Source: Gemmatimonadales bacterium
GTDB lineage: Bacteria; Gemmatimonadota; Gemmatimonadetes; Gemmatimonadales; GWC2-71-9
DNA: 35,931 nt
Direction of reading: 5' to 3'
NCBI GenBank assembly: GCA_030601605.1
Contig: JAUVTI010000003.1
Location: forward strand, 1 to 35,931
Shown here: in pieces, positions 367-15,735 of the stretch
Position numbering within the stretch: the stretch's first letter is position 1
How the letters are laid out: every line of letters starts with the position of its first letter
Notes under the pieces: model-generated
What the model saw: the letters and a program-made list of their open reading frames with translations, nothing else
Told to the model about the DNA's origin: nothing
The model's database searches: none
Made by a program: the position numbers and the translations under genes

Positions 367-2115
367 CTAGTAGCCTGCCGAACCTCCGCCGGAGCGCGGA
401 TCGTGGATCGCGACCCAGCCGTCCGCGGTCCGCATTATCGCAGCGACCTCACCGCTGAAACCCCCACGCTCCTCCACCACGTGGCCCATTCGCTCCAGGC
501 TCCTCGCCACGTCGCCTCTGAGGCCGCCGTGCTCGTACAGGATCCGGTCGGGCAGCGCCTGGTGGTGGATGCGTGGCGCTCCCACCGCTTCGCGCAGCGT
601 CATGCCGTGGTCCACCACGTTGGATATCACCTGGGTGACGGTAGTGATGATCGTGGGCCCGCCCGGGGAGCCGACCAGCAGCAGGAGTTCTCCGTCGGTG
701 TCCAGCACTATGGACGGGGTCATCGACGAGAGCATCCTCTTGCCGGGCTCGATCGCGTTGGCCTCCCCCTGGACGAGGCCGAACATGTTGGGCTGGCCCG
801 GCGCGCTCGTGAAGTCGTCCATCTCGTCGTTGAGCAGAAATCCCGCGCCGGCCACGGTCACCTTGCTGCCGTAGCCGAAGTTGAGGGTCGTCGTAACGCT
901 GACGGCGTTCCCATCGGCGTCCACCACCGAGTAGTGCGTCGTGTGATTCCCTTCGCCCCTGCCCGGTCGCAGCTCGGGAGTGGCGCTGGCCCTCGTCGGG
1001 TCGATGCTGCTGCGCCGCTCGGCGGCATAGCCCTTGGATAGCAGCATGGCGAGCGGCATCTCCACGTATCCCGGGTCGCCCAGGTAGTGGTTTCGGTCAA
1101 CGAAGCCGCGCCGCATGGCCTCGGTCAGAAGGTGCACGTGCTCGGCGCTTCCGAACGTGGGCAGCTGTTCGAAGCCCTCGAGCATGTTGAGGATCTCGCC
1201 CATGGTGACCCCGCCCGAGCTCACCGGGGCCATTGAGTAGATGGTGTGGCCGCGGTAGTCGATCACGATCGGGTCGCGCCAGATTGCGCGGTAGCTCGCG
1301 AGGTCCTGCTTCGTGATGAGCCCGTCTCCGCGCTCCATCTCCGCCACGATGAGGTCGGCGATGTAGCCCTCGTAGAATACGCGCCTTCCACTGTCGGCGA
1401 TCGCTTGGAGGGTACGGGCCAGGCCAGGCTGGACGAAGAGGTAGCCCTGCGGCGGGGCCTCACCGCTCGGCAGTAGGAACTTGCGGCGGGAGGCCTCGAA
1501 GCGGCTGAACAGCTCCGCCGTGCGCTCGATTCCCCGCGCGCGGGACTCGTCGAGCACGTGGCCTTCGGCCGCCAGTCGGATCGCCGGCTTCATCACCTCG
1601 GAGAGCTCGAGTGCGCCGAAGCGGCGCTGGGCTTCGGTGAGTCCGGCCACGGACCCGGGCACTCCGGCAGCCAGGTGTCCGATCAGGCCCTTGTCCGTGA
1701 GGTTGCCGGCGGAGTCGAGATACATGTCCCGGGTGGCCCGTCCCGGGGCCGTCTCGCGGTAGTCGATGGTGTATACCGAGCCATCGGCGAGGCGGATCAC
1801 CATGAAGCCGCCGCCCCCTATGTTGCCGGCCGAGGGATGCACCACGGCGAGCGCAAAGCCCACCGCGACCGCCGCGTCAACGGCGTTGCCACCGCGGTGG
1901 AGAATCTGCGCTCCCACCTCGCTCGCCATCGGATGCACCGAGGCGACTGCTGCGTGGGCCGTCGCCACGGGCTCCGTCTCGGCGATGAGGGGCCAGTCGG
2001 CGGGGATGTAGGGGGAGGGGAGCGCCACGTCGGGCGCCGGCTCGCAGGCGGCCAGGATGATGAGAGAGAGCACCGCCCAACCGCCCCACCTCGATCCAAC
2101 ACCGGATCTCGTCAT
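367..2115 (-). CDS. ggt: Gamma-glutamyltransferase, probable lipoprotein
   Basis: Motifs GGNAVDAAVA, AGNIGGGGFM, DYRETAP, autocleavage/catalytic HTTHYSVVD, LNDEMDDF and KRMLSSMTP. Start moved to ATG 2115 because of a GAGGAG SD upstream. Lipobox-like LIILAAC. Confidence 0.95.
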   Translation of the reverse strand: MTRSGVGSRWGGWAVLSLIILAACEPAPDVALPSPYIPADWPLIAETEPVATAHAAVASVHPMASEVGAQILHRGGNAVDAAVAVGFALAVVHPSAGNIGGGGFMVIRLADGSVYTIDYRETAPGRATRDMYLDSAGNLTDKGLIGHLAAGVPGSVAGLTEAQRRFGALELSEVMKPAIRLAAEGHVLDESRARGIERTAELFSRFEASRRKFLLPSGEAPPQGYLFVQPGLARTLQAIADSGRRVFYEGYIADLIVAEMERGDGLITKQDLASYRAIWRDPIVIDYRGHTIYSMAPVSSGGVTMGEILNMLEGFEQLPTFGSAEHVHLLTEAMRRGFVDRNHYLGDPGYVEMPLAMLLSKGYAAERRSSIDPTRASATPELRPGRGEGNHTTHYSVVDADGNAVSVTTTLNFGYGSKVTVAGAGFLLNDEMDDFTSAPGQPNMFGLVQGEANAIEPGKRMLSSMTPSIVLDTDGELLLLVGSPGGPTIITTVTQVISNVVDHGMTLREAVGAPRIHHQALPDRILYEHGGLRGDVARSLERMGHVVEERGGFSGEVAAIMRTADGWVAIHDPRSGGGSAGY

Positions 2116-2145
2116 CGACTCCTCGTTGACCGAAGCCCGAACTGC

Positions 2146-2181
2146 GTGGAGATTGACTGCACAATCTACCACCTGGACACT
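2146..2181. promoter_or_regulatory. Palindrome AGATTG-N6-CAATCT overlapping a possible murQ promoter (TTGACT-17-GACACT)
   Basis: GTGG-AGATTG(2150-2155)-actgca-CAATCT(2162-2167)-ACCAC in the 73-bp ggt/murQ divergent gap. The -35-like TTGACT is at 2153-2158 and a weak -10 at 2176-2181. Confidence 0.4.
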
Positions 2182-2188
2182 CATCGTG

Positions 2189-3115
2189 ATGTCTACTCCG
2201 GGATTCCTCGACCCGCGCCTCACCGAGCGCCGCAATCCGCGCAGCGAGCGGGTGGACGTCGCGTCGTCTCTCGAGATCGTCGACCTGATGAACGCCGAGG
2301 ACCGCTCGGTGCCCGATGCCGTTCACCGGGCGCGTGAGGAGCTGGCGCGCGCAATCGACCTGGTCGTGGAAGCCTTCGGAGCCGGCGGGCGCCTGGTGTA
2401 CGTGGGCGCCGGGACGAGTGGGCGACTCGGCGTGCTGGATGCCACCGAGTGCCCGCCCACCTTCGGCACGCCGCCGGAGATGGTGGTCGGGGTGATCGCC
2501 GGCGGCCGCGCGGCGCTCGACAAGAGCCAGGAGGGGGCCGAGGACGACGAAGCGGCCGGCGCCGAGGCGATGAACGAGCTCACCGTGTCGGAGCGCGACG
2601 TGGTGATGGGCATCGCCGCCAGTGGCACCACACCGTTCGTCAGCGCGGCTCTCTCTCGCGCGCGCGAGCTGGGGGCCCGGACCGCGTTCCTGACCTGCAG
2701 CAACCCGCCCGAGGAGATCGCCGCCATGGTGGACGTGATGCTGGCGATACCGGTGGGACCGGAGGTGGTGACGGGCTCTACCCGCCTCAAGGCGGGAACG
2801 GCCACCAAGCTCGCGCTCAACACGATCACGACGGGTGCCATGCTCCGCAGCGGAAAGGCGTACGGCAACCTGATGGTGGATCTGGTGGCGCTGTCCGAAA
2901 AGCTGCGCGACCGGGGCGAGCGGATCGTGATGGAAGCGTGCAGCGTGGATCGCGCCGGGGCGCGGCGCGCCATTGAGGACGCCGCTGGCAGCGTCAAGCT
3001 GGCGATCGTGATGGTGCGGCGGGACGTGGATGCCGCTACCGGGAGGGAGCTGCTGGAGGAAGCGGGCGGCTTCGTGCGCCGCGCGGCTGGTGATCCCCCC
3101 GCGGTGACCGAGTGA
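2189..3115 (+). CDS. murQ: N-acetylmuramic acid 6-phosphate etherase
   Basis: TERRNPRS, YVGAGTSGRLGVLDATECPPTFG, GIAASGTTPFV, GPEVVTGSTRLKAGTATKL, GNLMVD. Start set at ATG 2189 (GTG 2186 is an alternative). Confidence 0.96.
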   Translation: MSTPGFLDPRLTERRNPRSERVDVASSLEIVDLMNAEDRSVPDAVHRAREELARAIDLVVEAFGAGGRLVYVGAGTSGRLGVLDATECPPTFGTPPEMVVGVIAGGRAALDKSQEGAEDDEAAGAEAMNELTVSERDVVMGIAASGTTPFVSAALSRARELGARTAFLTCSNPPEEIAAMVDVMLAIPVGPEVVTGSTRLKAGTATKLALNTITTGAMLRSGKAYGNLMVDLVALSEKLRDRGERIVMEACSVDRAGARRAIEDAAGSVKLAIVMVRRDVDAATGRELLEEAGGFVRRAAGDPPAVTE

Positions 3116-4233
3116 GCCCACTGGCCGTCGGGCTCATGTCTGGCACGTCGCTCGACGGCGTGGATGCGGCGTTGGTCGAGATCGGGGGCCCCGACTCGGT
3201 GTCGCTGCGCGCGTTCCGCAGCACCCCCTACAGTGACGAGCAGCGCTCGGCGATTCGGGCGGCGCTCGCGGGCGGGACCGCGCGCGAGCTGGCCCTGCTG
3301 CACGCTGATCTGGGCGCGTGGTTCGCCGCCGCCGCCCTGGAGGTGCTGGAGCTGGCCGGCGTCGCCGCGGGTGAGCTGTCGTTCGTTGCATCCCACGGGC
3401 AGACGGTGTGGCACGAGCCCGGGCGGGCCACGATGCAGCTGGGAGATCCCGCGACCATCGCCGAGCGCACGGGCGTGCGCGTGGTGAGCGACTTCCGCAG
3501 CCGCGACGTGGCGGCGGGCGGGCAGGGAGCTCCGCTCGTGCCGCTGGCCGACGCGATGCTGTTCGGGGCGCCGCGGCGAGGGCGAGCGCTGCTCAACCTG
3601 GGCGGCATGGCGAACGTGACGTGGGTGCCGCGGCGGGGAGATACCGACGGCGTGATCGCGTTCGACACCGGTCCGGGAGTGGCGGTGTTGGACGCGGTGA
3701 CGAGACTCGTGGACCCCGCCGCAGCGTTCGACCAGGGTGGGGAGCGGGCGGCGCGGGGAGCGGCGGATGATGGGCTCATCGAGGAGCTCCTGGCCGACCC
3801 GTACTTCGCGGCGCCGCCGCCCAAGAGCACGGGGCGGGAGGCGTTCGGCGACGCCTACGCCGCCGACCTGGTGAGCCGCATGCGTCAGCGCCGCGCCGGC
3901 GCTCTCGGCGACGACTGCGTGGCAACAGCGCTCGAGCTCACGGTGCGCTCGGTGGCGGCGGGCATCGAGCGCTGGTTGCCCGCGGATGGCGAGCGCGACC
4001 TGCTCGTGTCGGGAGGCGGCGCCCGTAATGCGACGCTCGTGGCCAGCCTCCAGGCGGCTCTCGAGGCGTGGTCCGTGCGGTTGTTCGAGGAAGAGTTCTT
4101 CGACGGCGACGCGAAGGAGGCTGTCGCGTTTGCCTACCTGGGTTGGAGGGCGACCCAGGGGCTGACGTCGAACGTCCCTTCCGCCACCGGCGCCCGGGGC
4201 CCGAGAGTGCTGGGGTCGATCACTCCGGCCTGA
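3112..4233 (+). CDS. anmK: Anhydro-N-acetylmuramic acid kinase
   Basis: GLMSGTSLDGVD, SHGQTVWH, DFRSRDVAAGGQGAPLVP, FDTGPG, PPKSTGRE, KEAVAFAYLG. GTGA overlap with the murQ stop. Confidence 0.96.
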   Translation: MSPLAVGLMSGTSLDGVDAALVEIGGPDSVSLRAFRSTPYSDEQRSAIRAALAGGTARELALLHADLGAWFAAAALEVLELAGVAAGELSFVASHGQTVWHEPGRATMQLGDPATIAERTGVRVVSDFRSRDVAAGGQGAPLVPLADAMLFGAPRRGRALLNLGGMANVTWVPRRGDTDGVIAFDTGPGVAVLDAVTRLVDPAAAFDQGGERAARGAADDGLIEELLADPYFAAPPPKSTGREAFGDAYAADLVSRMRQRRAGALGDDCVATALELTVRSVAAGIERWLPADGERDLLVSGGGARNATLVASLQAALEAWSVRLFEEEFFDGDAKEAVAFAYLGWRATQGLTSNVPSATGARGPRVLGSITPA

Positions 4234-5629
4234 TTCCGATCGACTCCATCAACTCGAGCGCGGCACCGGCCGGGGTGGCATAGACGATCCGTCCTCCAGT
4301 TCCCTCCTGTCCGCCATACAGGATGCCCACCACCTCGCCGTTGCGGTCGAAGATCGGGCTGCCGCTCGCGCCCTGGGCGCCGTAGCCGTCCACCTGGATC
4401 ACGTCGTCCAGCACCTTGCTGACCGATCCGGCCCAGAAGCTCGTGCGGGCGTACTCCCCCGACATCGGGAGGTCGGTGCTGAGCGGGAACCCTATGAGCG
4501 CGATTGGATCTCCCTGTCTGAGCGTGTCGGAGCGGCTGTTCAGGCTCACCGTCGGAGTGCCGCCCCTGATGTCCAACTTGATGAGGGCCAGGTCGGCTGA
4601 GGCCGACACCCCGAGCAGAGTCGCGCGCCAGTTCTGCCGCGAGTCGGCGAACCGGACCGCCATTCTCGTCGGGCGGCGGTCGCCCCCCGCGCCGACCACC
4701 ACGTGCCGGTTCGTGAGCATCGTACCGTCGCTGCGCACGGCGAACGCCGTGGCGGTGAACACCTCGTCCGGCCCGAACTCCACCCAGATGATCGCCACCG
4801 CCCGCTGGTTGCGGTCGACGATGGCTCGGTAGTCTACCAGCGCGGCGGCCTGCTGGTACTGGAGTGCCTGGTTGGCATTGCCCAGCCGCTGCGTCAGCGC
4901 ATCGACTTCCTCGGCGCTGCCGGCGTGCTGGGCGGCGGCGAGCTGCCGCTGCAGGTCCTCCACGTCGCGGCGCGAGGTGCCCAGCGCGGCGGCCAGGCCC
5001 TCGACCCGACCCTCCAGCATCTCCATCGCGCGCTCGGATGCCTGCAGGATGGAGTCGGTGCGCGCCTGGAGCTCGGCGACTTCCCGCTCGCGCTCCCTGG
5101 CCTGCCTGCTGCCCTGGTAGAAGAACACGGCGGCGACCACGATCACGGACACGAAGAGGCCCACCGTCACGGTGCGCAGCGTCTTCGTCTGCCGCCCCAC
5201 TTCGATGCGAATCCGCTCGGTGGTGCTCATACGCCGGCGCCCGCTGTCCTTGTTGGCCGGCGCGGGCGTTGCCGGGGCCGCACCCGCAGCGCGGGCCACG
5301 ACTCCGTCGGGGGTGCCGGGCGGCGGCGGCCGGAACTCGACTATGGTGCCCTCGTCGCCGCGCCGGATCTGATCGGTGTCGCTGAGGTTCGTGTCGCGCG
5401 TGATGCGATGGCCGTTCACCAGGGTGCCGTTGCGGCTGCCGAGGTCGCGCACGTACCACCGGTCCCGCTGGGCCACTATGGCTGCGTGCCGCGTGGACAC
5501 ATCGAGGTCGCGCTCGGGGTCGAAGCGGAGGTCGGAGGCCGGGTGGCGTCCGATGCCGATGTACGCTTTGGAGAAGACTTCGGTGTACCCGGCCCGGGTG
5601 CCCGTGAGGATCTTGAGCTGAGCCTTCAC
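4220..5629 (-). CDS. FHA domain - transmembrane - coiled coil - trypsin-like (S1) serine protease
   Basis: N-terminal FHA (IGR...VSTRH...DLGSRNGT), one TM helix (VTVGLFVSVIVVAAVFFY), a heptad-rich E/Q/R/L segment, then the protease triad motifs TNRHVV, ADLALIK and GASGSP. Confidence 0.88.
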   Translation of the reverse strand: MKAQLKILTGTRAGYTEVFSKAYIGIGRHPASDLRFDPERDLDVSTRHAAIVAQRDRWYVRDLGSRNGTLVNGHRITRDTNLSDTDQIRRGDEGTIVEFRPPPPGTPDGVVARAAGAAPATPAPANKDSGRRRMSTTERIRIEVGRQTKTLRTVTVGLFVSVIVVAAVFFYQGSRQAREREREVAELQARTDSILQASERAMEMLEGRVEGLAAALGTSRRDVEDLQRQLAAAQHAGSAEEVDALTQRLGNANQALQYQQAAALVDYRAIVDRNQRAVAIIWVEFGPDEVFTATAFAVRSDGTMLTNRHVVVGAGGDRRPTRMAVRFADSRQNWRATLLGVSASADLALIKLDIRGGTPTVSLNSRSDTLRQGDPIALIGFPLSTDLPMSGEYARTSFWAGSVSKVLDDVIQVDGYGAQGASGSPIFDRNGEVVGILYGGQEGTGGRIVYATPAGAALELMESIGIRPE

Positions 5630-5637
5630 GGCGGGAG

Positions 5638-6668
5638 TTAGATGCCGCCTACGGCGATGAACAGCGCCAACGCGATGATCACGGCCGCGGCCGCACCGGC
5701 GATGACCATGCGCGACTTGTTCTCCGGCACCGGCGGGTTGCTTCCCTTGTAGACCGGCACCGGCTCGGTGGTCGACTCGGGATCCAGCAACGGGTAGACC
5801 TGGTGGCCCACCGAATCGTCACCCCCCGGGCTGGCGAGGCCCTCCCCGCTGAAGCGTGCGATCACGACCGTGATGTTGTCGGGGCCGCCCCGCTCGTTCG
5901 CCAGGTCGATCAACTCGGTGCAGATATCGGCGAGGTTCTTGTCGCTGTCCGCTACCCGCTCGGCGATCTCCTCGCGCGAGACCTGCCCGGAGAGTCCGTC
6001 CGAGCACAGCACGAGGGCATCGCCGCGCCGCACCTGCTGGGTGGTGAGGTCCACTCGCACCTTCGGGTCTGGTCCGAGCGCCTGCAGTATGATGTTGCGG
6101 CGATCGCTCTTCTCCGCCTCCTCCTCGGAAATCTCGCCGGCGTCGACGAGGCGCTGCATCAGCGACTGGTCCTTGGTGAGCTGGATGCCCTCGCCGTCGC
6201 GCACCAGATAGGCCCGCGAGTCGCCGACCTGTGTCAGATAGAGCTGATCGGCCAGCACGCCCACCGCAGTCGTGGTGGTGCCCATCCCCCTCATCTCGGG
6301 GTGGTCCTTGGCGTAGCTCTGAATCCGGGAGTTGGCCTCTTCAACCGCCTCCTTGAGACGGTAGGCGAACTGCTGGGGGGTGTTCTCGCTGTCGTTGGCC
6401 CAGGACTTCGCCAGGTGCTCGTAGATCGTCTCGGATCCCAGCTTGCTCGCCACTTCTCCCGCTGCGGCGCCGCCCATCCCATCGGCGACGATGATCAACG
6501 AGCCCTTGGGCCCCACCTCGTGCTCGCGCACGTCGGGCTGAAGCGATACGTCCCTTGTCGTGAGGTTGGCGACCAGGAACGTGTCCTCGTTGTGCTCGCG
6601 CGTCTGCCCGACGTCCGTCTTGCCGAACACGCTCATCCGGATGCCGGATCCTTTGGAGCCGAAGAATC

Positions 6669-6672
<4 letters not shown>
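5638..6672 (-). CDS. PP2C-family Ser/Thr phosphatase (Stp1/PrpC-like) with C-terminal membrane anchor
   Basis: TDVGQTREHNED, VADGMGG, MGTT, VGDSRAY, LCSDGL, GGPDNITV, and a hydrophobic C-terminal tail. Start set at GTG 6672 overlapping the upstream kinase stop (the ORF track uses TTG 6681). Confidence 0.93.
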
Positions 6673-8299
<1,627 letters not shown>

Positions 8300-8303
<4 letters not shown>

Positions 8304-9211
8304 GCAGGCTCCACGCGCAGCATCTTGTCGCCCACCAGGAAGCGGCCACCGGGATCAAGAGTGACCTCCCCTCGGACGGCGAGCGCTACGCCGTTGCGGC
8401 TGCCTAGGTCCACGGCCACGAAGTCCGCGTCCTCGGAGCGAATCTCCGCATGCAGACCGCTCATCGAGGGGTCGTACGGGAACGTGTAATCTCCCTGATC
8501 GCGCCCCAGCCTGATGTTGCGCCCGGGAGACAGGTGAATGATGTCCCGCGCCGAGCCGTCGGCCCTGAGCTGCGTGAGACACGCTATGTCGGCGCTCGGG
8601 ACGAGGCTGCCCATGCGGCGCGTGGCGTCGCGCTCCGGCGGATGCGGTCCGGGGTAGCCCAGGCGGCGGTACTCCAGCACCTGCGACCCCACCAGCAACC
8701 GGTCGCCGTCTATCAGCAGGTGCGGCTCGGTTATGAAGTGCCAGGTTCCGTTGCGGCTGCCCAGGTCGCGCAGATAGAGGTCTTCACCCCTGGGCGTCAG
8801 CTGTACGTGCAGCGGCGACATGAACACGTCGTCGGGGAACTCGAGCTCAGCTCCCTGGCGGCCGATCGTGGTGTCCCCGATCGGCACCGGGTAGCGCGAG
8901 ACCTCGGCTCCCGACTCGTCGAGCAGCACGACCACGAACGCCGAGGGCGGACCCGAGGTCGACACCCTGGGGGCCGAGGCCCGCGCCCCGAGGTCATGGC
9001 CGCACGTGGCGCAGTACTTGGTGCGCTCTCCGGCGGAGGTGCCGCAGCGGGGGCACGCCGGGCCGGCCCCGGGGGCCAGCACCCGCTTGCCGCATGAGGG
9101 GCAGAAGGGGAGTCCCTGTGTGACACCTGCGCCGCAGGCCGGGCAGGAGATCTCGGCCGAGCGCCGCGGTGCGGTGGCGTCGATGGGGGGCTTGTCAGCA
9201 GGTCCCGTCAC
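8300..9211 (-). CDS. Double zinc ribbon + tandem FHA domain protein
   Basis: CPAC, CPSC, CPRC and CATC pairs. Two FHA repeats: IGR..MSPLH..DLGSRNGT and LGR..MSGLH..DLGSRNGV. No TM segment. Confidence 0.88.
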
Positions 9212-9255
9212 GGGTCGTGCTCCGGGTCGAGCGCGCTAATGCACGGTGGGGAGCC

Positions 9256-9284
9256 AATGTACACCACGAAAAAAGGGGGGTCAA
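9256..9284 (-). promoter_or_regulatory. Sigma70-type promoter for the FHA/kinase/phosphatase/protease operon
   Basis: Minus strand reads TTGACC (9284-9279), 17-nt spacer, TACATT (9261-9256), in an AT-rich gap. Confidence 0.65.
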
Positions 9285-9294
9285 CCAAAGAAAA

Positions 9295-9324
9295 TTGACG
9301 TACTTCGTTGATTCTGTGTAGGTT
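9295..9324 (+). promoter_or_regulatory. Sigma70-type promoter for the amidase, probably leaderless
   Basis: TTGACG (9295-9300), 18 nt, TAGGTT (9319-9324). ATG follows 8 nt later with no SD. Confidence 0.55.
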
Positions 9325-9332
9325 CCGCCACC

Positions 9333-11300
9333 ATGCCGCGCACCCTCTTGGCCCCAGTGGCAGGTCTCGTGTCGCTGCTCGGCGCGGCGTGCGCAGGAGG
9401 GGCGATGTCGCTGCGCGAGCCTCCCCCGCCGCCCCAGACCGTGCACGGAGCCCTCGAGCTCCGCGTGGCCTACCCCCGGCAGGACGTACCGCTCACCGCT
9501 GGACCGGGCGCCTGGTTCGTGGTCCGCGCCGAATCCACATACGTCATCCCGGCGCGCGACTCGACGTTCATTTTCGGCTCGGTCGGGCGGGGCGACGCCC
9601 GCCTCAGCGTGAACGGTCAGGACGTCCCGGTATACCCGACCGGCGGCTGGATAGCGTGGGTGCCGCTTCCAGAAGACTCCGTGGCGCGCTTCGACATCGT
9701 GGCCGCGGCCGGCGGCGACACCGCTCGGATGTCGCTGTGGGCGCCCGTGGCCCGAGGCTTTGTGCCACCGGCGGAGGGCGTGTGGATCGACTCCACGTCG
9801 CTCTCGCCGTCCGGCGACCGTTGGATCAGGCCCGGCGAAGGCGTACGCCTGGAGGTGCGCGCCGCACCGGGAGCGCTGGTGCAGCTCCGGCTGGACGACT
9901 CCACGGTCGTACCCCTTATCACCGAAGCCGCTCCCGAGGACCTCCCCTGGGGTGAGCGCGCATTCGGCACCGTGCGGCCAGGCGTGCGGCCGGGGCGGCT
10001 GGACCGCTACGTGGGCTGGCACGTGGGGCGCATCGGGCCCGATCCCGGAGCCGTGCTCTCTCCCGACAGCGCGCCGGCGCCCGACGATTCGGCCTGGGCG
10101 TGGGTGGAGGCGGTCCGCGAGGCGGATACGGCCAGAGCGCGCTGGCCCCTGAGGATAGGGCTGGTGGACCCCGCGGCCCCGCCCGTGGTCGTGGTCAACG
10201 ACGACACCGCCGGCACCGGGCGCACCGACTCCGTGCTCGCCGGGCGGCCCGTGCCCTGGGGCACCTACCACTGGTTCTTCCCCACGGGTACCCTGGCGGC
10301 CGTGAGCGGTCGCTGGGATTCGCAGGTCCGGCTCCAGCTCTCCCGTTCCACGGTGGCTTGGGTAGACGCGCCCGACGTCCAACCGCTCCCGTCCGGGTAC
10401 CCGCCGCCGCGAGGCAGGGTGCGGTCGCTGCGCCTGCTGCCGGGACCCGCCTCGCTGCTGCTCCGTGTGCCGCTGCCGGACCGGATCCCCTACCGGGTGG
10501 ACGAGGCCGAGCGTGAGGTCACTCTCACGCTCTATGGCGTCGCGGCGGACGTGAATTGGATCCAGTACTCAGGCACCGACTCGCTGGTCGAGATCATCGC
10601 CTTCGAGCAACCGGCTGAGGACGTAACCGTGATCCGCGTGACCCTGAGCCGTCCGGTTTGGGGGTATCGCACGCGCTGGTCGGGCCATGACCTCGAGCTC
10701 GAGATTCGGCGGCCGCCGGTCATCGATCGCAGGAAGCCTCTCGAGGGCCGCCTCATTGCGCTGGACGCCGGCCACCCCCCGGGAGGCGCGATCGGACCCA
10801 CGGGCGTGCGCGAGCGCGACGTCAACCTGGAGGTGGCTCTCAGGGCCAGGGACCTCTTGGAGGAGCGGGGTGCCCGGGTATACCTCACACGAAGTGGCGA
10901 TTCTGCGCTCAGCCTGGCGGCGCGACCGCGCGCCGCGGAGGCGGCGGGCGCCGAGATCCTGATTTCGATCCATGCCAACGCTCTCCCCGACGGCGTGAAT
11001 CCGTTCGTGAACAACGGGACCAGCGTCTACTACTACCACCCGCGCAGCGCGCCGCTCGCTCGCGCGCTGGACCGGGCGCTCGTCGCCCAACTGGGCTTCC
11101 GCGACCTGGGGATGGGCCGCGGAGATCTGGCCCTGGCCCGGCCCACCTGGATGCCCGCTGCCCTCACGGAGGGGCTGTTCCTCATGCTGCCCGACCAGGA
11201 GGCCGTGCTGGCCAGCAGGGAGGGGCAGGACCGCTACGCGCGGGGCTTGGTGGAGGGACTGGAGGCGTTCCTGCGCGAGCGAGCCCAGGAGCAGCCCTGA
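9333..11300 (+). CDS. N-acetylmuramoyl-L-alanine amidase (Amidase_3), probable lipoprotein with long N-terminal accessory region
   Basis: C-terminal IALDAGH, ERDVNL, YLTR, ISIHANA, GTSVYY and PAALTEG retain the Zn and catalytic H/E/H/E residues. N-terminal lipobox-like LLGAAC. Confidence 0.9.
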   Translation: MPRTLLAPVAGLVSLLGAACAGGAMSLREPPPPPQTVHGALELRVAYPRQDVPLTAGPGAWFVVRAESTYVIPARDSTFIFGSVGRGDARLSVNGQDVPVYPTGGWIAWVPLPEDSVARFDIVAAAGGDTARMSLWAPVARGFVPPAEGVWIDSTSLSPSGDRWIRPGEGVRLEVRAAPGALVQLRLDDSTVVPLITEAAPEDLPWGERAFGTVRPGVRPGRLDRYVGWHVGRIGPDPGAVLSPDSAPAPDDSAWAWVEAVREADTARARWPLRIGLVDPAAPPVVVVNDDTAGTGRTDSVLAGRPVPWGTYHWFFPTGTLAAVSGRWDSQVRLQLSRSTVAWVDAPDVQPLPSGYPPPRGRVRSLRLLPGPASLLLRVPLPDRIPYRVDEAEREVTLTLYGVAADVNWIQYSGTDSLVEIIAFEQPAEDVTVIRVTLSRPVWGYRTRWSGHDLELEIRRPPVIDRRKPLEGRLIALDAGHPPGGAIGPTGVRERDVNLEVALRARDLLEERGARVYLTRSGDSALSLAARPRAAEAAGAEILISIHANALPDGVNPFVNNGTSVYYYHPRSAPLARALDRALVAQLGFRDLGMGRGDLALARPTWMPAALTEGLFLMLPDQEAVLASREGQDRYARGLVEGLEAFLRERAQEQP

Positions 11301-11463
11301 GCCCGGAGGGGAGTGGCGCGGCGTGATCCAGCTCCCGGGCGCGGCGTGACGGCCCTCACCGAGGTGGGCGCCGAGTCTGGAACGGGTAGGGTTGATGCCG
11401 GGTTGTAAGAGAGGGTCTAACAAGCTCGGGGGGACTGAACGGGTGACCAACGTTCGGGTACAT

Positions 11464-13707
11464 ATGGGTGTGAGCTTCCGCACGGTTTGTCTCTCGATAG
11501 CTGGGCTATTTGTGGCACTGAACGTCGCCGCCCAGACTCCGGTGCAGCGGGATTCCGTCGAGGCGTTTCGCGACTCGCTCGCGGCGATCGACGACACCAT
11601 CGCGCTGCGTGAGCTGGAGTCTGCGATGATCGACGTGGCAAGGGTCGATCGCGACAATGCCCTGCTGCACGTCAAGCTGGGCTTCCTCGCGTATCGGTTG
11701 GGTGAGCTCACGGGTGCGAAGCAGCACCTCAACGACGCGGGGTCGGAGTTCGAGTGGGCGGCCGACCTCGAGCCGGAATGGCCCTACCCGTGGTACGGGC
11801 TGGGGCTGGCTGAGCTGGCGATGGGCGAGGTGTCGATGATCGCGCTGGAGAACATCCGGCAGGCTCTCGGCCTGGACTATCTGTCCAGGGCGGCGCGGGC
11901 CTTCGGAATGGCGGCCCTGGCCGATCCGGCGTTTGCGAACGCGATCGTGGACCTGGCCGAGACCGCCATGGCGCAGCGCGTCAGGCCCCGGCTGGAGCTC
12001 GCGCTCGGAGCGGTGCGTGAGGCGGCGCGGACGACCGCAGCCCGGATTCCCGAGGTCCAGCTTGCGCGCGGGCGGGTCGAGCGGATGGTGGGAGAGGGAG
12101 ACTCGGCGCTCGCTGCGTTCGAGCAGTACCTGGTGCTTGGAGGAGATTCTGGAATCGGGTATCTGGAAGTGGCGCGCACATTGTTCTACGTGAATCGGCC
12201 GCAGCAAGCGGAGTCGCTGTATTACGCCGGCGCTCCGCTCGCCGTGTTGCCGAAAGCCGTCGCGGCCACGCGCGAGGATCTGAGCTGGGTGGCCACGCCG
12301 GAGGAGCTCGAGTCGTTCGACCTCACCCCGACCGAGGAGCGGGCCGACTGGCTGCGCGACTTCTGGCTCCGCCGCGACGTGGCCGAGGCCAGGGCGCCGG
12401 GGGACCGGCTGCAGGAGCACTACCGGCGCTACTTCTACTCGCTGCACAACTACGCGCTCATGTCCCGGCACCGCCGCTACGGTCCGGTGAACCCATTCCG
12501 AACCGAGCAGCGGATGTTCGACGACCGCGGGATCATCTACTTGCGGCACGGAGAGCCGGACGAGCGGGCTTTCTTCAACGCGCCGGGCGTGGACCCCAAC
12601 GAGTCGTGGCTCTACATGCGGCCTGACGAGAACCAGATCTTCCACTTCGTGGCCGCCGGCGACCTGCAGGACTACAAGCTGGTCGAGAGCCTCACCGACA
12701 TACTCGGCCTCGGGGTCTCGATCGAGCTTCAGGCGTCGGGCAGGAGTCACCCGGGGACCCAGGATCTCTACCTGTCTCGCATGACGCTGGATCCGGTCTA
12801 CCAGCGTCTCACGACGACCAGTGCGGCCGGGCAGGGGCGCGTGATGGCGCGCGAGCGCCAGATGGGCGAGCGGGCCATCGCGTTCGGCACGACCACGGAC
12901 AGCTACCGGCTGCGGTTCGAGTTCCCGCTGGGAGCCACGGTGCAGCACTACGTGATCGGCGACCCGGACGGCGATGGCGGGCAGGTGTTGGTGGTGTTCG
13001 CCATCCCGGGCTCGGCGGTTGCGGCGCAGCCCCTGGGTGAGCGCCTCGCCTACCCGGTGCGGATGCGCGTGGTGGCGGCATCGCAGAGTGACGACTACGT
13101 CGCCTACCTCGACACGACGCGTGTGTTCATGACCTCGGAGCCGATCGGGCCACACCAGCACCTGAGTGGCTACCTGACGGTCCCCGTGCCGCACGGCGAC
13201 TATGTCGTCCGAGTGGTGTTGGGGCAGCCGTGGCGGGACGTCGGCGAGGTTCACCTCGCCGAAGGCACGGTCGTGCCGGACTTCTCGGCCGACTCGCTCA
13301 CGGTCAGCGACCTGATCGTGGGGCGCGAGGGCTCGGGTCTGGTCTGGCGGGTGGGTGACAGGGCCATGAACCTCAATCCTCTGCACGATTTTCCCCAGGG
13401 CGCCGACCTGGACGTCTACTACGAGGTGCACGGACTGGAGCGCGGCACGCTGTATCGCACGCGGCTCGAGGTGCACAAGCAGGGTGGAGGCTCGATCTTC
13501 GGCTGGATTGGGAGGCTGTTCGGGGGTGGCGGTCCGCCCATCTCCATCTCGTTCGATGGCGTCGCAGAGGGCCGCGCCACGACGGTGCTGCGTCAGGTGG
13601 ACATCAGCTCGCTCAAGCCGGGCAGCTATCGCCTCAAGATCGTCGTCGAGGACCCCGTCAGCGGGGCGGAAGTCGAGCGCGAATCCGAATTGAAAGTCGT
13701 TCAATAA
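11464..13707 (+). CDS. Secreted TPR-repeat / GWxTD-like domain protein
   Basis: Signal-peptide-like start and TPR-like helices (WPYPWYGLGLAE). Family-type segment ..RADWLRDFWLRRD..RLQEHYRRY..DDRGIIYLRHGEPD..ESWLY, then two beta-rich C-terminal domains (YYEVHGL, LKPGSYRLKIVVED). The literal GWxTD motif is degenerate. Start set at ATG 11464. Confidence 0.75.
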   Translation: MGVSFRTVCLSIAGLFVALNVAAQTPVQRDSVEAFRDSLAAIDDTIALRELESAMIDVARVDRDNALLHVKLGFLAYRLGELTGAKQHLNDAGSEFEWAADLEPEWPYPWYGLGLAELAMGEVSMIALENIRQALGLDYLSRAARAFGMAALADPAFANAIVDLAETAMAQRVRPRLELALGAVREAARTTAARIPEVQLARGRVERMVGEGDSALAAFEQYLVLGGDSGIGYLEVARTLFYVNRPQQAESLYYAGAPLAVLPKAVAATREDLSWVATPEELESFDLTPTEERADWLRDFWLRRDVAEARAPGDRLQEHYRRYFYSLHNYALMSRHRRYGPVNPFRTEQRMFDDRGIIYLRHGEPDERAFFNAPGVDPNESWLYMRPDENQIFHFVAAGDLQDYKLVESLTDILGLGVSIELQASGRSHPGTQDLYLSRMTLDPVYQRLTTTSAAGQGRVMARERQMGERAIAFGTTTDSYRLRFEFPLGATVQHYVIGDPDGDGGQVLVVFAIPGSAVAAQPLGERLAYPVRMRVVAASQSDDYVAYLDTTRVFMTSEPIGPHQHLSGYLTVPVPHGDYVVRVVLGQPWRDVGEVHLAEGTVVPDFSADSLTVSDLIVGREGSGLVWRVGDRAMNLNPLHDFPQGADLDVYYEVHGLERGTLYRTRLEVHKQGGGSIFGWIGRLFGGGGPPISISFDGVAEGRATTVLRQVDISSLKPGSYRLKIVVEDPVSGAEVERESELKVVQ

Positions 13708-13714
13708 CACGCGC

Positions 13715-13760
13715 TTGACAGTGTTCGAACGCGGCCAATAGTTTGAGAGTTCCAGAGGAG
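13715..13760 (+). promoter_or_regulatory. Sigma70-type promoter and SD for the second kinase
   Basis: TTGACA (13715-13720), 18 nt, TAGTTT (13739-13744); GAGGAG at 13755-13760. Confidence 0.6.
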
Positions 13761-13764
13761 ATTG

Positions 13765-15735
13765 ATGTTCTGTTCGCGTTGCGGTACGGAAGTCGATAAT
13801 CAGGCCAGGTTCTGTCCTTCCTGCGGCCTGGATCTCGCTACGACCACGCCCCTGGCTGCCGTACAGCCGGAGCGGGACGCCGAGAACGAGCTCGACGCCG
13901 TCCGCGACGCGCTGAAGGAAGAGTGGGAGATCGAGAAGGAGCTGGGTCGCGGTGGCATGGCCATCGTCTTCAGGGCCCACGACAAGCACCTCCACCGCGA
14001 CGTGGCAATCAAGGTGCTCCCGTTCTCGCTCGCCTTCGACGCCGAATTCGTGGAGCGCTTCCAGCGCGAGGCGCGCACGGCCGCCCAGCTCGAGCACCCG
14101 CACATCATCCCGATCTACCGCGTCGGCAAGACCGGCAGGGTGATCTTCTTCGTGATGAAGTACCTGCGCGGCGGGGCGCTGTCGGAGCTGCTCGCCGAGC
14201 GGGGCTCCCTCACGCCCAACCAGATCAGACAGGTCCTGGTGCAGACGGGCGGAGCGCTCGGCTACGCTCACCAGCACGGCATCGTGCACCGCGACATCAA
14301 GCCCGACAACATCATGTTCGACGAGTTGGGCCAGGCGGTGCTGACGGATTTCGGTATCGCCAAGGCGGCGACCGGCTCGCGGCTCACGGGCACCGGCATG
14401 TCCATCGGGACGCCGCACTACATGAGCCCTGAGCAGGCGCGCGCCCAGCCACTGGACGGACGCAGCGACATCTACTCGCTCGGCGTCGTGGCCTATCAGT
14501 GTCTCACAGGCACCGTCCCGTTCGACGGCGAGGACGCGTTCTCCATCGGCTACAAGCACATCATGGAGGAGGTGCCGGCCCCCGAGCTGCACACCAACGA
14601 GGAGCGCTCGCTGATGGGGGTCATCCGGCGCATGATGGCCAAGCAGGCGGACGAGCGGTTCCAGAACGCCGGAGAGCTGATAGCGGGACTGGAGGGACGC
14701 TTCAGGACACCGGCGCGGCCCACGCCCGCCACCACCTCTGCCGAGGCACCGACCTCGGTGATGGAGTCCAAGCCGACCGCGTCCAAGGCCATCCCACCCG
14801 ACGCCCGGCCTTCGACGCCCACCACGCCGATTCCGGCGGCTCAGTTCGATCCCGCGAAGGAGAAGAAGCGCAGCGGAGTGCTGGTCGGCATGGTAACCGT
14901 GCTGCTGCTGGGGCTGGGCGGTGCGAGCGGCTACTGGTACTTCGGGATGGATGCCGCGTGGCCTCCGTTCCCGGCTGCAGGCGGCGGTGTCGTGCCGGCC
15001 GAGTCCACGGCCGTCGCGGTCGACGATTCGCTGGGCGCCGGAGCCGGGGACTCGCTCGCGCTTGCCGCCGGCGACTCGGGGGCTGCCCCGGCGGACTCGG
15101 GCGCGACCGTCGACACCAGCGCCTCCGTGCCGGTCGCCGAGCTGCCGCCGACGGGAGTGCTGCACCTGACCGGTGTGCCCTCGCTCGCCCGCGTGACGGT
15201 GGACGGGGACGTGCAGACGGGCGAGTTCATCACCGTCGATCCGGGAACCATGCGGATCCGGGTGACCAAGACGGGACACGACACGTTCACGACGAGGGCG
15301 TCGGTGGGACGCGGCGACACGGTGAAGGTCGCCGTCCGGCTGAATGCGCTGGTCGCCGCAGCCGACACGCCGACCCCGCGGCGGCCGCGCCCCCGGCCGC
15401 TCGAGTACTACTGCGCCGATCCGATCACGGCGGGGGCGGACTACAACGCCGGCGACCGCTGCTTCGACACCGGCCCGCGGCCGTTGGCGGCGGGACTGGT
15501 GCCCGTGCGGCCCGAGATAGCGCAGCAGCAGCCCACTCCGGTCCGACTGTGGGTGAAGGTGCGCGCCGACAGCTCAGTCGGCGAAATCAAGTGGGTGCGA
15601 CAGTCCAACGTGCAGGCGTTCACCCTGAGTGCTGCGCGGTTTGCGATGGATCAGATGACCTACTCGCCCGCCCAGAAGGGCGGCCAGGCGGTGGACGGCT
15701 GGGTCCGCATGGCGCTGCGCGCGAGGCCCCAGTAG
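13765..15735 (+). CDS. Hanks-type Ser/Thr kinase: zinc ribbon - kinase - TM - PEGA-like - TonB C-terminal-like domain
   Basis: CSRC..CPSC, LGRGGMAIVF, AIKVL, HRDIKPDN, DFG, GTPHYMSPE and a TM helix. PEGA-like GVLHLTGVPSLARVTVDG. The tail VRLWVKVRADSSVGEIKWVRQS...YSPAQKGGQAVDGWV resembles TonB_C. Confidence 0.92.
   Translation: MFCSRCGTEVDNQARFCPSCGLDLATTTPLAAVQPERDAENELDAVRDALKEEWEIEKELGRGGMAIVFRAHDKHLHRDVAIKVLPFSLAFDAEFVERFQREARTAAQLEHPHIIPIYRVGKTGRVIFFVMKYLRGGALSELLAERGSLTPNQIRQVLVQTGGALGYAHQHGIVHRDIKPDNIMFDELGQAVLTDFGIAKAATGSRLTGTGMSIGTPHYMSPEQARAQPLDGRSDIYSLGVVAYQCLTGTVPFDGEDAFSIGYKHIMEEVPAPELHTNEERSLMGVIRRMMAKQADERFQNAGELIAGLEGRFRTPARPTPATTSAEAPTSVMESKPTASKAIPPDARPSTPTTPIPAAQFDPAKEKKRSGVLVGMVTVLLLGLGGASGYWYFGMDAAWPPFPAAGGGVVPAESTAVAVDDSLGAGAGDSLALAAGDSGAAPADSGATVDTSASVPVAELPPTGVLHLTGVPSLARVTVDGDVQTGEFITVDPGTMRIRVTKTGHDTFTTRASVGRGDTVKVAVRLNALVAAADTPTPRRPRPRPLEYYCADPITAGADYNAGDRCFDTGPRPLAAGLVPVRPEIAQQQPTPVRLWVKVRADSSVGEIKWVRQSNVQAFTLSAARFAMDQMTYSPAQKGGQAVDGWVRMALRARPQ

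Follow-up and report, generated by a model that had tools for sequence, protein, structure and literature searches.

A Ser/Thr kinase, PP2C phosphatase and FHA-protease operon beside cell-wall genes in Gemmatimonadales

The operon and its four proteins

A four-gene operon encoding a double zinc-ribbon/double-FHA adaptor, a zinc-ribbon Hanks-type Ser/Thr kinase, a tail-anchored PP2C phosphatase and a protein that joins an FHA domain to an HtrA-like serine protease (the FHA-protease) was identified in a Gemmatimonadales bacterium, on a DNA stretch of 35,931 nucleotides (GenBank assembly GCA_030601605.1, contig JAUVTI010000003.1, here contig C117; G+C ~69%). The whole stretch is referred to as the window, and belongs to a genome bin of 2.09 Mb (G000) that is 79% complete. 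Gene identities were assigned by Pfam and NCBIfam scans of the long open reading frames (ORFs) of the window, and membrane helices by a hydropathy scan (Table 1). Neighbouring genes of the operon overlap or are separated by gaps of fewer than 35 bases, and a promoter-like site on the minus strand (9284..9256, TTGACC-17-TACATT) agrees with the consensus at 9 of 12 positions, a consensus match only. A first-pass annotation of this DNA had described the operon as a reader (double FHA), a writer (membrane Hanks kinase), an eraser (membrane-anchored PP2C) and a candidate effector (the FHA-protease), divergent from an amidase, a GWxTD protein and a second kinase and adjoining murQ-anmK, in an organism with TonB receptors. 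Every gene and domain that it named was recovered by the Pfam, NCBIfam and hydropathy scans where it had placed them, and its remark that PASTA domains and T6SS (type VI secretion system) genes are absent agrees with the scans of the window.

Table 1. Positions of the operon genes and of other features in the window
Feature	Position	Strand	Basis
Double zinc-ribbon/double-FHA adaptor, 303 aa, first operon gene	8300-9211	-	Pfam
Zinc-ribbon Hanks Ser/Thr kinase, 544 aa	6669-8303	-	Pfam, hydropathy
Tail-anchored PP2C Ser/Thr phosphatase, 347 aa	5638-6681	-	Pfam, NCBIfam NF033484
FHA–membrane helix–helical stalk–HtrA-like serine protease, 469 aa	4220-5629	-	Pfam, hydropathy, structure model
Divergent intergenic region between operon and amidase gene, 121 bp	9212-9332	.	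Sequence
Lipoprotein-like exported N-acetylmuramoyl-L-alanine amidase with Ig-like stalk	9333-11300	+	Amidase_3
Exported TPR and GWxTD protein	11392-13707	+	TIGR04514; weak TPR_2
Second zinc-ribbon Hanks kinase, 657 aa, PEGA	13762-15735	+	Pfam, hydropathy
murQ, N-acetylmuramic acid 6-phosphate etherase	2057-3115	+	TIGR00274
anmK, anhydro-N-acetylmuramic acid kinase	3112-4233	+	PF03702, NF007148
TonB-dependent receptor	22216-24993

The adaptor matches FHA (6.8e-17, two stretches), DZR (1.1e-7) and Zn_ribbon_3 (7.6e-10), has no membrane helix by hydropathy and carries the GR...SxxH...NG motif in both of its translated FHA domains; we read it as a soluble phosphothreonine adaptor. The kinase (Pkinase, 2.6e-51) has an N-terminal zinc ribbon and a single membrane helix (residues 373-391), followed by an outer tail of ~150 aa that matches no Pfam family, is ~35% identical within the genus and appears to be fast-evolving and periplasmic. 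In an alignment of 29 kinase sequences, K71, H164-R165-D166, D188-F189-G190, the activation-loop T204, the juxtamembrane T328 and the zinc-ribbon residues C4, C7, C18, D21 and G22 are invariant and T206 is nearly so; among these orthologues T328 precedes Q/E at +1, V/L at +2 and a hydrophobic residue at +3. Both kinases of the window and the adaptor share one type of short zinc ribbon at their N-termini (C-x2-C ... F-C-P-x-D-G). The phosphatase matches PP2C_2 (2.3e-16) and exceeds the cut-off of the Stp1/IreP family model NF033484 (241.1 bits, cut-off 230), has a C-terminal membrane helix (residues 326-344 of 347) and shares invariant metal-binding Asp motifs with the other members of an 11-sequence alignment (A2); its true start is probably the ATG at 6636.

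The FHA-protease combines an FHA domain (2.6e-17, residues 26-89), a membrane helix (153-171) and a Trypsin_2 domain (1.7e-22, residues 293-436). Its structure model (pLDDT 89) consists of an FHA domain (1-111), a disordered linker (115-147), a long helix that includes the membrane segment (144-205), a helical stalk to residue 277 and a protease fold (278-463), and the predicted topology places the FHA domain in the cytoplasm and the protease domain in the periplasm. Across 62 sequences, R28, S45, H48 and N67 of the FHA domain and H309 and S422 of the protease are invariant, and D346 is nearly invariant. The nearest solved relatives by sequence are HtrA1, HtrA, PepD and MarP for the protease (HTRA1 protease domain, E 2e-21; MarP structure 3k6y, E 4.5e-15) and GarA/OdhI for the FHA part. 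As judged from the alignments and translations, the catalytic residues of the kinase, PP2C and protease and the phosphothreonine-binding residues of all three FHA domains of the operon are intact.

Like DegS, HtrA and MarP, the FHA-protease has an N-terminal membrane anchor and a C-terminal, predicted periplasmic chymotrypsin fold with a His/Asp/Ser triad. Proteases of the HtrA/DegS/DegP type (S1C) carry one or two C-terminal PDZ domains, whereas the FHA-protease has no PDZ match in Pfam, ends about six residues past the protease fold and scores far below the degP_htrA_DO (56.9 bits, cut-off 416) and DegS (29.4 bits, cut-off 423) models. It differs from MarP in having one membrane helix rather than four (NF033740, 43.9 bits, cut-off 250), and from all of these proteases in that a cytoplasmic FHA domain replaces the periplasmic sensor. 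Complex prediction for the kinase tail (residues 392-544) with the periplasmic part of the FHA-protease (residues 172-469) gave scores of 0.01 and 0.08 (mark 0.32), which speak neither for nor against contact between the two.

Conservation, co-loss and T6SS-linked copies

Loci were gathered through the FHA-protease in 40 relatives and a 300-genome sample of the phylum, and a locus search with the PP2C alignment A2 added 80 more, all from Gemmatimonadota, in which the presence of PP2C is by construction; a diverse FHA-protease alignment (A1) contained no stretch conserved enough for a search of this kind. After removal of one duplicate, and with the T6SS-context loci L062-L067 left aside as lying outside the order, 124 distinct Gemmatimonadales loci were obtained. 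Genes in relatives were identified by tblastn with the window proteins (E <= 1e-6) and from ORFs picked by codon-position G+C, a procedure that can miss diverged genes. The phylum tallies take in the unpublished genomes G023, G178 and G203, and no locus-level claim rests on those three.

All four core genes are found together in 57 of the 92 Gemmatimonadales loci that could be evaluated, so the arrangement is not a chance one. Among the carriers of a version of the operon are metagenome-assembled genomes labelled Gemmatimonas sp. (L139, L164, L171). The other loci have PP2C alone (17), PP2C and the FHA-protease (8), the kinase, PP2C and the FHA-protease (7) or another combination (3). Adaptor and kinase are nearly always kept or lost together, and are both present in 58 of the 92 loci, namely the 57 full operons and one locus with the ZnFHA2 adaptor, kinase and PP2C. 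The gene set, domain architectures and predicted single-pass topologies, and their conservation as an operon across Gemmatimonadales, are evident at the level of sequence.

Seven loci with complete context contain the FHA-protease but neither kinase nor adaptor. In five of these the catalytic His and Ser are lost (triad positions QDA, QDA, ADP, LSP and G-L), and the remaining two read HDS, while both residues are kept in all 86 other FHA-protease sequences (79 HDS, 7 HES). The kinase-less loci form two clades, and the earliest branch of each still has the kinase–PP2C–FHA-protease triad, which fits decay of the protease after loss of the kinase. The tie between kinase loss and protease decay is suggestive and does not amount to proof. 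The phosphothreonine-binding residues R, S and H of the FHA domain are kept in all seven, including the five proteins that lack the catalytic His and Ser (L074, L075, L145, L079 and L173), so the FHA–membrane helix–stalk scaffold may retain a non-catalytic role.

The pairing of a kinase with an FHA-bearing protease recurs in the same genome, where contig C71 (~8906-12814, L174) encodes a kinase divergent from a 690-aa FHA-FHA-Trypsin_2 protein. The C71 kinase has a degenerate N-terminal kinase-like half, its neighbours encode a GT4 glycosyltransferase and a methyltransferase, and relatives of the C71 paralogue make up the outgroup clade of the FHA-protease tree. Full-text literature searches returned no study of an operon such as the one described here, and only an architecture entry in a 2008 survey of prokaryotic serine proteases, the available text of which lists FHA-FHA-Trypsin for one Bacteroides thetaiotaomicron protein (PMC2605481). 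The FHA domains of that protein are likewise N-terminal to the trypsin-like domain, and the C71 paralogue has exactly its layout; unlike the present analysis, the survey, as far as its available text goes, gives no operon, topology or function (PMC2605481). Sequence look-alikes hint at FHA-protease genes in Acidobacteriota and Bacteroidota as well.

Outside the order, a kinase–PP2C–FHA-protease triad lies directly after tssK-tssL-tssM in five genomes from three other families of the class. TssC is on the same contig in all five, PP2C has no match in two of the five loci, and no amidase, murQ or anmK was found nearby in any of them. A gene for a CsgG/LpoB-like lipoprotein flanks the triad in these clusters (L062-L067), and a sixth copy of the T6SS-linked clade (G287) comes from a locus too short for its neighbours to be seen. 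The tree of 62 FHA-protease sequences, with 13 double-FHA paralogues as its root, sorts copies from the families f3, f2 and f1 accordingly and places the six T6SS-linked copies in one clade inside f1, adjoining the genus of the window (SH-aLRT 96-100; 99 in a 28-row analysis); in an approximately unbiased (AU) test on 28 rows, the alternative of a single clade of all Gemmatimonadales copies was not rejected (p 0.131). Whichever the direction of recruitment, the same module appears to serve two contexts, the cell-wall block and the T6SS, and we read it as portable.

Within the genus of the window the module appears to work without a T6SS. TssC, which was found in 30 of the 301 genomes sampled across the phylum, was not found in G000 or in any of four congeners, and searches of five genomes of the genus, of which four are 92-97% complete, found no TssK; neither TssK nor TssM had a tblastn match in G000, a weak result when taken alone, given the completeness of this bin. 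T6SS clusters inside Gemmatimonadales were examined at five loci, two of which have a related kinase and lipoprotein after tssM and none of which has a PP2C or FHA-protease match. Gemmatimonadota T6SS clusters (L178-L183, L062, L063, L182) contain a pair of tssK-like genes at a distance of 1-2 kb, with identities to the query of 36-41% and 45-56%. A 53% identical homologue of the CsgG/LpoB-like lipoprotein is encoded in G000 (contig C207:8149-8781), away from any kinase match.

In the TagE/PpkA–TagG/PppA–TagH/Fha1 pathway of the T6SS, an FHA protein binds phosphothreonine on the kinase, according to the available text of PMC13584744. The operon resembles this pathway in that a membrane Hanks kinase, a PP2C and an FHA reader are encoded together, and its triad homologues in other Gemmatimonadota families hold the PpkA/PppA/Fha place after tssM. 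By contrast, the genus of the window has no T6SS, the FHA reader is fused via a membrane helix to a predicted periplasmic protease, a double-FHA zinc-ribbon adaptor is added, and the TagH model TIGR03354 gives only 33.4 bits against a cut-off of 120.25.

Neighbourhood, proposed mechanism and competing readings

The amidase gene is the divergent immediate neighbour of the operon in 75 of 96 evaluable loci, the upstream neighbour in the others being a PD40/Omp85-like gene (8), a GWxTD gene (7), none (4) or another gene (2). On the downstream side, anmK, nagZ or murQ is present within 2.2 kb in 77 of 103 loci and within 8 kb in 45 of 49. In relatives, a GH3 NagZ-like gene lies between anmK and the protease gene, and nagZ has been gained in this slot in 32 of the 49 loci that offer 8 kb of flank or more. 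Where kinase and protease are missing, an AmpG-family permease follows PP2C in five of nine gap ORFs examined (TIGR00901, 1e-89). The loci L109, L113, L118, L122 and L138, which lack kinase, adaptor and FHA-protease, have ampG on the same strand after PP2C, in the layout amidase <-> PP2C-ampG -> <- nagZ-anmK-murQ; AmpG had no tblastn match in G000. The linkage to amidase and recycling genes that the first-pass annotation had proposed to look for in related genomes was thus found within Gemmatimonadales, and the contrary outcome, unrelated neighbours in most relatives, was not.

In monoderms, modules of Hanks kinase, PP2C and FHA proteins are known regulators of cell-wall synthesis, and in proteobacteria of T6SS firing; their FHA reader acts as a scaffold in the cytoplasm. 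In the present operon, a membrane helix links the reader to an HtrA-like protease that appears intact, so that cytoplasmic phosphorylation could decide periplasmic cleavage. We favour, with a little better than even confidence, the reading that the operon encodes a module of threonine phosphorylation that acts through a periplasmic protease tethered to the membrane, is reset by the PP2C and most likely has its target in the cell wall or envelope. An envelope cue would be sensed by the kinase through its fast-evolving periplasmic tail, and the kinase would autophosphorylate on its activation loop and on the invariant juxtamembrane T328, which has a hydrophobic residue at +3. Phosphothreonine sites on the kinase, T328 being the candidate, would then dock the FHA domains of the zinc-ribbon adaptor and of the FHA-protease, docking would recruit or activate the HtrA-like domain across the membrane for cleavage of an envelope protein, and the tail-anchored PP2C would reset the system. 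As the genus has no T6SS, the process targeted is most likely remodelling of the cell wall or envelope. Control of peptidoglycan by the module is plausible but unproven, and the position of the Gemmatimonadales operon beside cell-wall genes does not by itself show a functional link to them. Should phosphorylation and periplasmic cleavage indeed be coupled, bacterial Ser/Thr signalling would gain a new type of output, and regulation of the envelope would become more accessible in Gemmatimonadota, a diderm phylum that is widespread and little studied. The module occurs both beside peptidoglycan genes and in T6SS clusters, and comparing the two contexts is a natural way to look for its substrate.

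Several points weigh against this reading. We infer the mechanism, including T328 as docking site and activation by docking, from general FHA biology and from the binding of an FHA protein to phosphothreonine on the kinase in TagE/TagH, as described in the available text of PMC13584744. The pattern of kinase loss and protease decay represents only 2-3 independent events, and a sign test on it does not reach significance (median p 0.5). In 17 of 92 loci PP2C is the only one of the four genes left, a count to be read with the 80 loci that were found through PP2C itself, and the genome encodes a very large kinome for its size, with 44 Pkinase matches (42 above cut-off) in 2.09 Mb, beside three PP2C loci and nine FHA domain matches; the PP2C may therefore serve many kinases and not the operon alone. 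The link to peptidoglycan consists of synteny that is also common to unrelated genes: among loci with at least 7 kb upstream, gamma-carbonic anhydrase (gCA) or class II ribonucleotide reductase (RNR) is kept in 64 of 76 and the amidase in 59 of 76, and gamma-glutamyltransferase (GGT) is kept in 39 of the 49 loci whose downstream flank spans at least 8 kb.

These last observations bear on a reading that we consider unlikely yet a serious contender, in which the neighbourhood is block synteny that was inherited and is functionally meaningless, the operon serves as a general Ser/Thr signalling node or as a phospho-regulated protease for quality control of envelope proteins, and the PP2C is a broad phosphatase for the kinome. 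The equal or higher frequency of RNR, gCA and GGT in the block, the ratio of kinases to PP2C loci, the survival of PP2C after loss of the other three genes and the HtrA-like character of the protease would all be accounted for in this way. However, kinase and FHA-protease genes are lost or decay together, which speaks for a dedicated pair, the triad appears from the best trees to have moved as a unit into T6SS clusters (subject to the AU result given above), and the protease lacks a PDZ domain of the kind used by quality-control HtrA proteases.

The circuit proposed in the first-pass annotation, in which envelope sensing is coupled to the neighbouring amidase and to anhydro-N-acetylmuramic acid recycling, is in our estimate improbable as a specific account; the protease would process the amidase or its regulator, or the kinases would phosphorylate MurQ/AnmK. 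The amidase and recycling linkage, the gain of nagZ and the AmpG-family permease of the reduced loci are in its favour. Because the amidase is periplasmic, it cannot be a direct kinase substrate, and any control must pass through the FHA-protease; by topology and structure model, no other product of the operon places a catalytic domain in the compartment of the amidase. The 170 matched residues of the amidase domain cover the 174-position Pfam model from end to end; the domain thus seems to lack an inserted autoinhibitory helix, such as the E. coli AmiA/B/C enzymes carry, and may need another form of control. A precedent is Mycobacterium tuberculosis MarP (Rv3671c), a membrane-anchored periplasmic protease that, in the available text of PMC6628586, cleaves the peptidoglycan hydrolase RipA, indicating that a protease of this kind can activate a cell-wall hydrolase. 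Against this coupling, the control genes of the block are equally kept, and the parts separate in both directions, since the 17 PP2C-only loci retain amidase and recycling genes where kinase and protease are gone, and the T6SS triads have neither. The amidase stalk, moreover, is kept with or without the protease. The whole stretch is one syntenic block of a single order whose members are kin, so that the locus counts are not independent. What stands of the proposed circuit is its PASTA-independent anatomy and its linkage within the order; the specific functional coupling does not, as unrelated genes are kept equally well and the parts come apart.

A broader form of the favoured reading, to which we attach a low probability, is that the module is an inside-out device, in which cytoplasmic threonine phosphorylation acts through the FHA–membrane helix–protease chain on local opening or remodelling of the wall. 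It would process the stalked amidase or its partners in Gemmatimonadales, and in T6SS clusters it would clear a path through peptidoglycan for the secretion machine. If true, this would be a PASTA-independent, protease-output form of Ser/Thr envelope control in diderms.

We consider it very unlikely that the operon is a diderm version of the PknB–PstP–FhaA/FhaB system of Actinobacteria, with control over division and the synthesis of peptidoglycan. Like the actinobacterial fhaA-fhaB-pstP-rodA-pbpA-pknA-pknB cluster and the PASTA kinases of Firmicutes, it combines a kinase, a membrane PP2C and FHA readers in one operon near cell-wall genes; its tail-anchored PP2C belongs with the Stp1/IreP family (NF033484), FhaB/FipA is the best FHA model match, and the kinase domain is most like the PknB_PASTA_kin model (NF033483, 329 bits). 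However, this model is matched over positions 1-361 of 563 and under its cut-off of 450, with no PASTA repeats, the FhaB_Rv0019c model gives 63 and 51 bits against a cut-off of 125, and the FHA proteins are not FhaA/FhaB. No SEDS/PBP genes (rodA, pbpA or ftsW) are among the window genes, the host is a diderm, and the protease fusion, with its protease output, has no counterpart in the actinobacterial cluster. With no PASTA, SEDS/PBP, T6SS, TagH or FhaB match above cut-off, the operon belongs neither to the T6SS pathway nor to the PknB–PstP–FhaA/B system. Finally, a PpkA/PppA/Fha-type threonine-phosphorylation pathway regulating a T6SS encoded elsewhere in the genome, which the tssM-adjacent triads of the other families might suggest, is highly improbable in view of the missing TssC and TssK matches in the genus, of the missing TssM match in G000 and of the TagH score.

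Flanking genes and other signalling genes of the genome

The amidase contains an Amidase_3 domain (PF01520, 1.8e-33, residues 475-644; 116 bits, cut-off 27; model positions 1-173 of 174), and the named equivalogs AmiA/B/C, CwlD and Rv3717 all score far under their cut-offs. Its N-terminus is a signal- or lipoprotein-like hydrophobic segment that ends in ...LLGAAC. The model of residues 25-470 (pLDDT 88.8) is an all-beta string of Ig-like domains, for which no Pfam family was matched and Foldseek returned only tandem Ig proteins (TM-scores <=0.18). Dependence of this stalk on the FHA-protease was considered and rejected, as loci without the protease retain it.

The GWxTD protein scores above the cut-off of TIGR04514 (1.3e-8, 35.3 bits, cut-off 28), with PF20094 reaching only E 0.19 in Pfam, and has a signal-like segment (residues 25-49) and a weak TPR_2 match; its gene likely starts at the ATG at 11464. 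In many relatives (43 of 76 loci with enough flank), a PD40 (TolB-like) protein of 950-1150 aa is encoded between the amidase and GWxTD genes, for example at L060:2371-5298(-), L048:9785-12757(+) and L054:9858-13322(+), with an Omp85-like C-terminal barrel in one case; this protein had no tblastn match in G000. The second kinase has Pkinase (2.1e-50), zinc-ribbon (2e-6) and PEGA (1.8e-4) matches, a membrane helix (372-390) and a weak TonB_C match under cut-off (0.0051), and its PEGA and TonB_C-like parts are predicted to be periplasmic. It is followed on the divergent side by the gCA and RNR genes.

On the other flank, anmK (PF03702, 1.7e-102; NF007148, 423.6 bits, cut-off 387) is convergent with the FHA-protease gene, and their 3' ends overlap by 14 bases. 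The murQ match (TIGR00274, 363.2 bits, cut-off 302) starts at ORF residue 55, and the true start of the gene is probably near 2189-2207. GGT is encoded beyond anmK and murQ.

Elsewhere in G000, contig C175 (L175:4307-7687) encodes a triple-FHA protein followed by a second PP2C, beside an LPG_synthase_TM-family gene, and contig C4 (L177:2130-3884) encodes an FHA-GAF-adenylate/guanylate cyclase fusion. DNA near-identical to window positions 4000-11400 is present (at least half of the sampled words) in 16 public sequencing runs from a dozen studies, labelled as marine sediment, cold seep or marine metagenomes, and two possible RNA runs match the locus with small shares (0.20 and 0.12).

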